This document shows positions 61,602 through 63,419 of a stretch of 64,000 bases of DNA, piece after piece (position 1 is the stretch's first letter; every line of letters begins with the position of its first letter). The stretch lies in the IMG/VR virus record IMGVR_UViG_3300045988_128600. One strand, written 5' to 3'. This DNA is from a virus. The position numbers were made by a program, and so were the translations under genes. The notes beneath the pieces were generated by a model, which saw nothing but the letters and a program-made list of their open reading frames with translations, ran no database searches and was not told the DNA's origin.

Positions 61602-63380
61602 TTAATAATTTTTAATCATTTCTTTAAAATCATTACTTCTAAATGTATCATACATAGGCTCTAAAATACATTTTTCTACTAAATATTTCCTATCCGTAAT
61701 ATCTTTAAAATCTTCATCAGTAAAAGTATAATTAAATTCTTTAAAAATTTTAATCATATCTTCTTTAGTATATTTTCTACTGTGAACGTATGCTAATAAA
61801 GTTAAATATTTTTTATAATAAGTATAAAAACAGCTAACTGAAATATCTAAAGAAAATCCTTGATTTTCTAATAAATATCCTGTGGCATCCATATAAAGAT
61901 TTTTAACAAACATTTCATTAGGTGTTAATAATACGTTTTTATTATTATAAGCAACTAATTGATCTCCATGAGTGAGTAAACCACAAAATCTATCTACAAT
62001 TTTATCAAAAGTAATATTATAATAATCAAGACAATATTTAATTACATCATATACTTTATCTTTATTGTTTAAATAATTTTTAATGGCCAAATGTTTATTT
62101 TTAGTTATAGTAATTGCTTCTCCGGTTTCTTTAACTCCTTGGCATCTATCAAAGAAAGATTTCCATAATCCATCAAGATTATCAACATAAATACTAATTG
62201 CGGATACAGTATCAATTAAAGATACATCAGCACAATAAATATCTGCTCCAATATTAGTAGCAATCTTTTTATTATGCTCTAAGATTTCGTCATTAGAATA
62301 ACTTTTATCAATATAAGATAAAAATACCTCTTTATTAATGGTATTTACAAATTTCTTATTCAAGAATAAGCTCTCAGGAAAAGTATTAAGATTTGTAATA
62401 CAAGAACCGCCATCTATAACCATATCTTCTTTATTCAAAGAATAATACGGAGATATGACTGAAGTTTTTCTTGTATCAAAAGAAAAACAATTTTGATACA
62501 TTTCAGTACAAACTCGCTCAATCGCAATTTCAAACACGGGAAAAGCACCAAAATTAATAGCTACAGTACCACTATATTTATTAATCAAAATTGCTACCAT
62601 AACAGGCACATTATAAGTTCTTGACATATCAATAATATAAAAGTTATTATTATGAGATTTAATCGCACTAATAATATTTTTTAATTTTTCATCTTTAATA
62701 CTGTCTATGTCATAAAAATAAAAATCTTTATTATCAATATCAATATAAAAATTACTTAAAACATAATGCTCAAAAATCTCAGATAAACCTTGGTTTAATG
62801 CTTCATTAAAAGTATTGCCGGCCGCCATTCCTGAACTACCATGATAACGTTGAAGAAGACGAGGATCCATATATAAAGTTTTATTAATATTAACTCCTTT
62901 AAATGGCACTCCAAAAAATTCATTATTATAAATGGTCTTAAAATAATCTTCTAATAAACCATTATCTTTTTTATTCAAACGATCAAAAAGTTTATATAAA
63001 AGAGTATCTTCTCCTCCAAGTGCTTCTTTATAACTTAAAGGTTTTTCATTTTTAAATAAGGAATAACCATAATTTTTTCTATTTGATTCAATTTTTTCCG
63101 CACAAAGAAAAGGATTACAAAGATAGTGCATTCCATTACAAAAACGCTCATACATTTCCGCATAACCAGAAGCTCTAGCAAATTCTTTTGTAACACCTTT
63201 ACCATAGGTTTTTAATACAAAATGTCCTTTGTATTCAAGACTTAATACAAGACTCCAAGTAGTTGATTGTTCTTGACGTAAAGCTTCCTCAACACAAGTA
63301 AATCCGCGTCCTTCTAAAAAATTCTTAATATTGTTAACTGTATCAATAGGATTTATTTCTTTATAATGTTGATTATAATT
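61602..63380 (-). CDS. YcaO-domain protein; the conserved N-terminal region extends upstream of the first ATG (63155)
   Basis: GSSGMAAGNTFNEALNQGLSEIFEHYV matches the YcaO core (SNGLAAGNTLEEAILHGLLEVIERD). Upstream in frame without stops, W..KGHFVLKTYGKGVTKEFARASGYAEMYERF matches the YcaO N-terminal motif. No ATG, GTG or TTG lies between the in-frame TGA at 63402-63404 and 63155. Confidence 0.6.
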   Translation of the reverse strand, partial: NYNQHYKEINPIDTVNNIKNFLEGRGFTCVEEALRQEQSTTWSLVLSLEYKGHFVLKTYGKGVTKEFARASGYAEMYERFCNGMHYLCNPFLCAEKIESNRKNYGYSLFKNEKPLSYKEALGGEDTLLYKLFDRLNKKDNGLLEDYFKTIYNNEFFGVPFKGVNINKTLYMDPRLLQRYHGSSGMAAGNTFNEALNQGLSEIFEHYVLSNFYIDIDNKDFYFYDIDSIKDEKLKNIISAIKSHNNNFYIIDMSRTYNVPVMVAILINKYSGTVAINFGAFPVFEIAIERVCTEMYQNCFSFDTRKTSVISPYYSLNKEDMVIDGGSCITNLNTFPESLFLNKKFVNTINKEVFLSYIDKSYSNDEILEHNKKIATNIGADIYCADVSLIDTVSAISIYVDNLDGLWKSFFDRCQGVKETGEAITITKNKHLAIKNYLNNKDKVYDVIKYCLDYYNITFDKIVDRFCGLLTHGDQLVAYNNKNVLLTPNEMFVKNLYMDATGYLLENQGFSLDISVSCFYTYYKKYLTLLAYVHSRKYTKEDMIKIFKEFNYTFTDEDFKDITDRKYLVEKCILEPMYDTFRSNDFKEMIKNY

Positions 63381-63419
63381 ATTCGTATAAACACACCCTT
63401 TTCATTTATCTTATAATTA

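Follow-up and report, generated by a model that had tools for sequence, protein, structure and literature searches.

A probable ACG start codon in a stand-alone YcaO gene of a TAG-recoded gut phage

The locus described here has its closest known counterparts in two separate fields, one concerned with enzymes and the other with translation. YcaO of Escherichia coli is a stand-alone enzyme of 586 residues, whose substrate is unsettled, with support of S12 methylthiolation or thioamidation of uL16 having been proposed (PMC7550191). On the side of translation, initiation at codons other than AUG is known from infC with its AUU, from a mutant of T7 gene 0.3 and from reporters covering all 64 codons. 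ACG can initiate in E. coli, where the N-terminal methionine was identified by mass spectrometry and where ACG belongs to the group of codons operating at 0.1-1% of AUG (bioRxiv 10.1101/063800), and the AUG-to-ACG mutant of T7 gene 0.3, as cited in PMC5499595, recruits ribosomes, with little protein being made. Here we describe a YcaO gene on the minus strand of IMG/VR virus record IMGVR_UViG_3300045988_128600, analysed as one stretch of 64,000 nucleotides (the window), which is part of a large gut phage genome of about 190 kb. No ATG, GTG or TTG precedes the conserved N-terminal part of this gene, and its translation probably begins at an ACG codon (63384..63386, minus strand).

No stop interrupts the YcaO reading frame over 599 codons, i.e. 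after a TGA at 63404-63402 and through a TAA at 61604-61602, with a second stop (TAA at 63413-63411) located two codons beyond the TGA. As the initial annotation had read from the sequence, this frame is free of stops up to the TGA and contains no ATG, GTG or TTG before position 63155. The earliest such codon is the ATG at 63153..63155, which is codon 83 of the open frame (and corresponds to Met78 when residues are numbered from the ACG); it is embedded in the conserved motif ASGYAEMYERF and is not a plausible functional start. At a GC content of 24%, we estimate the chance of finding 82 stop-free codons at about 5e-4. Stop-codon recoding was considered as a means of extending the frame and rejected: the phage does read TAG as a sense codon, but recoding of TGA or TAG cannot lengthen the frame because the stops upstream are TGA and TAA.

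What lies in front of this ATG is clearly YcaO sequence. The protein belongs to the YcaO superfamily, as had been claimed, with 98.5 bits against the Pfam family PF02624 (cut-off 25.7) and 83.1 bits against TIGR00702 (cut-off 75.65), and both YcaO motifs quoted previously are found in the frame. The PF02624 match (62220..63203, minus strand) covers residues 67-394 of the open frame, equivalent to residues 62-389 counted from the ACG, so that in this hidden Markov model comparison, which had been suggested as a check, the domain begins 16 residues before the ATG at 63155. Counted from the ACG again, the TIGR00702 alignment begins at residue 13, and residues 16-299 align with residues 16-294 of E. 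coli YcaO (4Q84), which means that the two N-termini are colinear. Thus, the domain, residues that are invariant in the family and the alignment to the E. coli enzyme all begin upstream of the first ATG, in line with the original view that the conserved N-terminal part lies 5' of this codon.

The position of the start is indicated by the relatives of this gene. The nearest proteins were sought among 5.8 billion proteins, and DNA of relatives was taken from IMG/VR, ENA, JGI and Logan assemblies. Besides a cluster of 94%-identical proteins, whose representative is a 517-residue model beginning at the first ATG, three full-length proteins with 62-64% identity were found (P0002, P0003 and P0004). 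P0002 and P0003 begin with MNN(N)YSQHYKE, with P0004 having nine extra N-terminal residues that originate from an in-frame upstream ATG. MNN(N)YSQHYKE aligns with TNNYNQHYKE in the window, and therefore the window's ACG at 63386-63384 occupies the position of the ATG in those genes. Counted from here, the coding sequence (61602..63386, minus strand) comprises 594 codons from ACG to TAA, and every close relative whose gene is available in full has an intact open reading frame (ORF) of 594 codons that begins at the orthologous codon.

This codon occurs in three versions. It is ATG in the clade of about 63% identity (L009-13, L024, L025, L033, L034), GTG in one sublineage of the window's own clade (L001/L014, L016, L130-133) and ACG in the window as well as in L002, L003/L018, L007/L008, L015, L017 and L134. 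In these two clades the only alternatives to ACG are thus ATG and GTG, which are both canonical start codons, and 15 other viral homologs from IMG/VR start with ATG (in one case TTG) located 3-8 codons ahead of the HYKE motif. The ACG is orthologous to the canonical starts of its relatives. According to the initial annotation, a canonical start in related genomes would have spoken against an unusual start here; such starts do exist in other lineages, yet the window's lineage and most close relatives keep ACG. Recurrent loss of the start within the family was also considered and discarded: in the short homologs P0025 and P0034, translation has a normal ATG to start from and TAG codons are found in frame, and their truncation is a gene-caller artefact because of TAG recoding.

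An important question is whether the 5' part of the gene is translated at all in genomes carrying ACG. Pairwise ratios of non-synonymous to synonymous substitution rates (dN/dS) among ACG carriers are 0-0.15 for codons 2-77, with dS reaching 0.5, and 0.06-0.10 for codons 78-594, so that the first part of the gene is indistinguishable from the rest. Constraint in ACG carriers is also no weaker than in the ATG clade (dN/dS 0.07-0.16). In codons 2-77, L002 and L017 differ by 16 synonymous and no non-synonymous changes, the window and L007 by 14 and 3, respectively, and variable sites among ACG carriers are distributed over the three codon positions as 2/3/21. Moreover, residues 1-77 contain 10 of the 30 columns that are invariant in the family (K9, P13, T16, F23, G62, K63, G64, A72, S73 and E77). 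S71, E75 and E78-R79 of E. coli YcaO, which we take to be nucleotide- and Mg-binding residues, align with S73, E77 and E80-R81 of the phage protein; among 24 homologs, S73, E77 and E80 are invariant and R81 is nearly so, with S73 and E77 both being encoded before the first ATG.

Since these 10 invariant residues and the constraint lie upstream, a protein made from Met78 would lack essential parts. The pattern of substitutions argues that codons 2-77 are translated in ACG carriers and that the gene is neither a pseudogene nor one for a truncated enzyme, but specifies a full-length protein under selection. That the start was recently changed in a gene that is now decaying, or that only the truncated Met78 protein is made, as the 517-, 509- or 548-residue models produced by gene callers might suggest, is highly improbable: dN/dS is 0.03-0.15 in the two parts of the gene among ACG carriers, even at a dS of up to 0.5, all full copies retain the intact 594-codon frame, and truncation would eliminate S73 and E77 along with the other eight invariant residues. 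Truncation at the first ATG, one of the options raised initially, is therefore rejected on account of selection on and conservation of codons 2-77.

Signals surrounding the ACG are compatible with initiation at this very codon. The Shine-Dalgarno-like sequence AAGGGTG (63394..63400, minus strand), which is invariant in the seven close relatives aligned, ends 7 nt upstream of the ACG, a distance within the spacing range of the other genes of this phage. AAGGAG-type sites precede nearly all other genes in the window. Given this and the predominance of Bacillota among the cellular homologs, the host probably depends on Shine-Dalgarno sites. No significant RNA structure was detected in the initiation region (fold z-score 0.09), nor any Rfam match at the 5' region of the gene. 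In addition, the third-position G of the ACG is fixed in all ACG lineages. By comparison, G is not fixed at any of the 156 four-fold degenerate sites of the gene, 22 of which have it in part of the sequences, and ACG accounts for only 4.4% of the threonine codons. A fixed G fits the role of a start codon rather than that of a free threonine codon because G3 pairs with C34 of the initiator anticodon.

The initial annotation had named a non-canonical start at ATA or ATT as one option. A non-canonical start is indeed the best explanation, but the candidate codon is the ACG at 63386-63384. In-frame near-cognate codons further downstream, i.e. ATA (63356-63354, codon 11) or ATT (63347-63345, codon 14), would have the advantage of being better starts than ACG in E. 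coli, operating at 1-2% of AUG (bioRxiv 10.1101/063800). They are located, however, 38-47 nt away from AAGGGTG, which is the sole Shine-Dalgarno-like site in front of them, and initiation at either one would delete the invariant K9, with the ATT start also eliminating P13. Furthermore, the ATA is replaced by ATT in L009 and by a threonine codon in P0002, L024 and L033, and in the relatives the corresponding codons are internal. Taken together, this makes a start at ATA or ATT quite unlikely.

The strongest competitor of an ACG start is a frameshift. Ribosomes might initiate at an upstream ATG (63405-63403), perhaps on a leaderless or nearly leaderless mRNA, and then slip by +1 at AAA-AGG-G, with the ACG being read as an ordinary threonine codon. 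This ATG opens a short out-of-frame ORF that overlaps the start region (ATG AAA AGG GTG TGT TTA TAC GAA TAA; 63379..63405, minus strand; nine codons including the stop). As the rare codon AGG awaits decoding in the A site, peptidyl-tRNA-Lys would re-pair from AAA to AAA within the run of four A's, generating a product that begins with MKGCVYTNNY and has the N-terminal peptide MKGCVYTNNYNQHYK. The slip site (63402-63396) does exist within ATGAAAAGGG and provides, beside a slow codon, a P-site codon capable of pairing anew in the +1 frame. AGG is rare in this phage (14 of 425 arginine codons, or 3.3%), and an in-frame AAA-AGG pair occurs only once in 11,852 codons. Promoter-like hexamers would place the start of the transcript beside this ATG, and the element consisting of the ATG and the A run is invariant across all close relatives aligned. 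It is shared by the ATG clade, and in L024, L025 and L034 of this clade the upstream ATG is in frame with YcaO.

This frame relationship is not conserved, however, since the upstream ATG is out of frame in L009 and L033. It also has no Shine-Dalgarno site, unlike almost every other gene here, with the actual site pointing to the ACG. Moreover, a slip would leave the G of the ACG unexplained, as the third position of a plain threonine codon should drift (0 of 22 G-carrying four-fold degenerate sites are fixed for G), and it would not account for the alternatives at this position being canonical ATG and GTG only. In re-pairing of the P-site codon followed by a slow codon, which is AGG here, the site resembles programmed +1 frameshifting at CUU-AGG-C in yeast Ty1 and at CUU-UGA in prfB, but in contrast to these it features neither an upstream stimulator nor a conserved frame relationship, and no stimulatory element is known for a site of this kind. 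A frameshift, which had been listed among the initial options, thus survives as a minority explanation that we consider unlikely, with initiation at ACG being preferred.

The 100-nt intergenic region has only 3 variable sites, as compared with some 5-11 in every 50 nt of the coding sequence on either side. It contains two promoter-like arrangements, TTGATT-17-TATTAT and TTGATA-16-AATTAT (63413..63447, minus strand), which stem from a consensus scan and are not evidence of function; the transcript start predicted from them is near the upstream ATG at 63405. A -35-like hexamer at 63435-63440 is TTAATA in all GTG-start relatives (L001, L016, L130-133) and TTGATA in all ACG genomes. This association may reflect a compensation between promoter strength and start strength or plain shared ancestry and linkage. 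Further upstream, a terminator-like hairpin with a 13-bp stem and a T run (63447..63477, minus strand) ends the preceding TAG-rich gene and is conserved in relatives.

The ACG allele is present in at least seven distinct sequences from independent assemblies and different samples, and ACG and GTG variants co-occur in one IMG metagenome. In a cluster at 90% identity, 11 of the 15 proteins listed (43 contigs) have call lengths of the ACG type and the other four (18 contigs) the length of the GTG type. The assignment of call length to allele was checked on representatives before it was used as a census of ACG, and protein length turned out to be a valid proxy only in part, with the 509-residue models proving to be GTG genomes. 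The 517-residue models begin at the first ATG and those of 548 residues at a synonymous GTG in L002 and L003; these differing lengths are gene-caller artefacts. ACG is the majority allele in the window clade, from which ATG is absent among the sequences obtained.

With respect to its history, the whole-gene tree requires three steps either for a single origin of ACG followed by a change from ACG to GTG or for two independent ATG-to-ACG changes plus one from ATG to GTG. When the tree is built from the first 400 nt, ACG sequences enclose the GTG clade, and therefore ACG is favoured as ancestral there. With one origin or two, ACG has persisted through substantial divergence. Its recurrence in many independent assemblies led us to reject sequencing or assembly error as its source. 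Error is thus the least probable explanation of all, together with two forms of exotic rescue, in which the ACG would either become AUG through C-to-U editing of the RNA or be decoded by an initiator tRNA of the phage. All that could be cited in favour of a rescue is the array of 29 tRNA genes and the recoded genetic code of this phage. We know of no mRNA C-to-U editing system in phages, and the 5' end of the YcaO gene yielded no RNA motif. A dedicated initiator tRNA is not supported, since in the 64-kb window of the approximately 190-kb genome there is neither a tRNA with a CGU anticodon nor a clear initiator-type tRNA, with no initiator features being recognised in the two tRNAs with a CAT anticodon.

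In summary of these comparisons, we assign a probability of roughly 0.6 to near-cognate initiation at the ACG at 63386-63384, resulting in low expression, with both the site and the expression level being deduced from sequence. In mechanistic terms, an ancestral ATG start would have changed to ACG. AAGGGTG would position 30S subunits 7 nt before this codon, where the initiator fMet-tRNA (anticodon CAU) could pair with A1 and G3, with the C-A mismatch in the middle being tolerated. The protein would keep its normal N-terminus and be initiated at about 0.1-3% of the efficiency of ATG, in a manner that is probably sensitive to proofreading by initiation factor 3. Very little YcaO should then be made relative to the 292-residue U32-like protein encoded downstream on the same putative transcript, whose gene combines an ATG with a strong AGGAG site. 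This would most likely be a variant of known non-AUG initiation: as with the AUU of infC, the T7 gene 0.3 mutant and the 64-codon reporters, a one-base neighbour of AUG stands behind a Shine-Dalgarno site and low output is expected. Unlike the T7 mutant, which was made in the laboratory, the phage YcaO ACG is a natural majority allele kept across diverged lineages.

Several points weigh against an ACG start. To our knowledge, ACG is absent from the start codons of translation table 11, and the only natural ACG starts that we know of are those in eukaryotic viruses (VP2 of adeno-associated virus, C' of Sendai virus) and, via RNA editing, in plant plastids. In the literature searched, no natural ACG start of a bacterium or phage was found. 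ACG is a very poor start codon in E. coli and not among the annotated starts of the model bacterial genomes surveyed (bioRxiv 10.1101/063800). At the locus itself, AAGGGTG is weaker than most Shine-Dalgarno sites of this phage, a plausible +1 slip site follows the upstream ATG at 63405, and the fixed G could simply reflect the overall conservation of the entire 5' region. Finally, whole-gene parsimony gives no decision between one and two origins of ACG.

A further-reaching proposal, to which we give distinctly less than an even chance, is that ACG is a selected natural start in this bacterial virus and not merely a tolerated mutation. In combination with the weak Shine-Dalgarno site, it would keep YcaO very low and sensitive to initiation factor 3 in comparison with its U32-like neighbour, the link to the -35 hexamer would represent compensatory tuning of the dose, and the enzyme would belong to a phage-borne system of radical SAM/SPASM, YcaO and U32-like proteins that modifies a phage or host protein.

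Should initiation at the ACG be confirmed, the gene would provide a natural and evolutionarily maintained ACG start in a phage of a host using Shine-Dalgarno sites. Translation table 11 and all standard gene callers exclude ACG, and all database copies listed from the protein cluster are mis-called as fragments of 509, 517 or 548 residues that lack catalytic residues. Genes of this type may therefore be systematically truncated or dismissed as pseudogenes. The ACG, GTG and ATG alleles, which occur in near-identical contexts, could become a natural system for studying start-codon tuning and proofreading by initiation factor 3 in gut Bacillota or their phages.

As to the enzyme itself, the best explanation of the data includes an intact, functional and full-length (594-residue) stand-alone YcaO of the E. 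coli type. Of the solved structures, E. coli YcaO (4Q84-4Q86) matches best in sequence (E 7e-22), with colinearity starting at residue 16, and it resembles the phage protein in size as well as in having no fused or adjacent E1-like or TfuA partner. The closest subfamily is that of the E. coli enzyme, NF040716 ('S12 methylthiotransferase accessory factor'), of which the phage protein is not a member, as it scores 100.4 bits against an equivalog cut-off of 700. With 36 bits against a cut-off of 219, it does not match the SagD/TOMM azoline cyclodehydratases (TIGR03604), and no E1-like or Ocin-ThiF-like domain was found near YcaO in L007, L009 and L025. The score for TfuA-associated YcaO proteins (TIGR03266) is 33 bits against 365, with no TfuA among the neighbours listed. 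Its putative chemistry would be to activate, at the expense of ATP, a backbone amide of a peptide or protein.

Differences from E. coli YcaO include its being encoded by a phage, a C-terminal half without a recognisable family, and its setting in a cluster of radical SAM/SPASM genes, a gene for a radical SAM-glycosyltransferase fusion and a U32-like gene. The genes found upstream of YcaO in relatives encode two maturase-like proteins of the radical SAM/SPASM type (499 and 467 residues), small proteins of 102, 193, 59 and 180 residues and the radical SAM-glycosyltransferase fusion. This suggests that the YcaO gene cluster is a peptide or protein modification system. In a more distant phage (L019), YcaO is followed by a cysteine-rich repeat protein of 309 residues (7787-8716) with CCNTNSTNGN... 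and CKNGNHGQ... repeats and eight in-frame TAGs, and then by a 463-residue protein and a radical SAM protein. The repeat protein is a candidate substrate of the modification cluster.

YcaO enzymes had been described as rare in phages, and this holds true for catalogued phages: 50,697 GenBank phage records yielded a single weak tblastn match, and there is no PHROG family. Close relatives of the locus were not detected among GenBank phages either, where the only matches were to tRNAs and to one E. coli ycaO. YcaO does recur, however, among uncultivated viruses, with about 20 large IMG/VR contigs carrying it. Enzymes of the E. coli type in radical-SAM-rich clusters of roughly 190-kb TAG-recoded gut phages could be a new source of backbone modification in peptides or proteins.

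The gene downstream of YcaO (60712..61590, minus strand) is real and conserved. It has a strong AGGAG site (61600-61596), with its ATG start located 11 nt after the YcaO stop. The encoded 292-residue protein reaches 19.4 bits against Pfam U32 (PF01136), below the gathering cut-off of 22.4. Its AlphaFold2 model has a predicted local distance difference test score (pLDDT) of 90, and the best fold match in the PDB is the U32 peptidase Mk0906 (5D88; E 1.9e-5, template modelling (TM) scores 0.50/0.57, 13% identity). In the family alignment, C188 and C192 are invariant and H198 and C218 nearly so. By its TIM-barrel likeness and its conserved cysteines, the model suggests a distant U32-like TIM barrel, which differs from the U32 family in scoring below the Pfam threshold and in having only two invariant and one nearly invariant cysteine. 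The U32 family includes the iron-sulfur hydroxylases RlhA, TrhP and UbiU/UbiV. The initial annotation had proposed this protein as a partner of YcaO. It is a conserved neighbour, its gene lying directly behind YcaO in the window clade as well as in the 63% clade, but an obligate partnership is contradicted by homologs that occur without YcaO as well as by L019, where the unrelated cysteine-rich repeat protein takes its place.

The wider window encodes an endolysin, a radical SAM/SPASM enzyme, an RNA ligase, a vault-like protein and the 29-tRNA array, and gyrase subunits were recognised by eye from its translations. TAG is a sense codon here, with eight in-frame TAGs in the endolysin, six in a Listeria-Bacteroides-repeat protein and about ten in the gene upstream of YcaO; genes containing in-frame TAGs are located at 11754-13055, 47767-49797 and 63481-63999 (minus strand), with many other genes, among them YcaO and that for the 292-residue protein, having none. 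A suppressor tRNA with a CTA anticodon (50980-51052) has an unpaired U1 and a Gln-like G73, and a tRNA-Gln is absent from the array. This parallels the TAG-reassigned 'code 15' gut phages (bioRxiv 10.1101/2021.08.26.457843; PMC9523058), which likewise feature a CTA suppressor tRNA and many TAGs in late-type genes such as that for the endolysin, but such recoding leaves the missing start of YcaO unexplained.

Among the other tRNA genes, positions 1 and 72 are paired in a tRNA-Met (CAT; 57875-57950), whose anticodon stem is not of the GGG/CCC type. A second one with a CAT anticodon (57798-57873, minus strand; Rfam 39 bits), missed by default ARAGORN, has U1:A72 and two G:C pairs beside the anticodon loop, and may be an elongator Met, an Ile2 or an initiator-like tRNA. 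A tRNA-like gene at 60563-60633 (minus strand; Rfam 46 bits), for which ARAGORN draws a short anticodon loop with a two-base 'anticodon' tc, could be a degenerate tRNA or an unusual decoder. Also located in the tRNA array is a weak match to the type-P1 twister ribozyme (56747-56797, minus strand; 41 bits with a gathering threshold of 67; E 1.6e-6).

Elsewhere, a tail-fibre-like coding sequence (41677-42422, minus strand) switches frame near 42190, with the piece at 41677-42189 having no canonical start for 79 codons, which could reflect a programmed or mutational frameshift or a split gene. ORFs of 384-738 residues on the plus strand (18025-19179, 24683-26098 and 31061-33277), opposite GC-richer genes of the minus strand, are almost certainly not genes. 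Finally, an unusual set of genes next to the tRNA array (30743-33241, 33721-35301, 24668-26050 and 17848-19233, minus strand) encodes a protein with major-vault-protein shoulder and repeat domains, a DUF2828/DUF7788 protein, an RNA ligase and an SPFH/flotillin protein.

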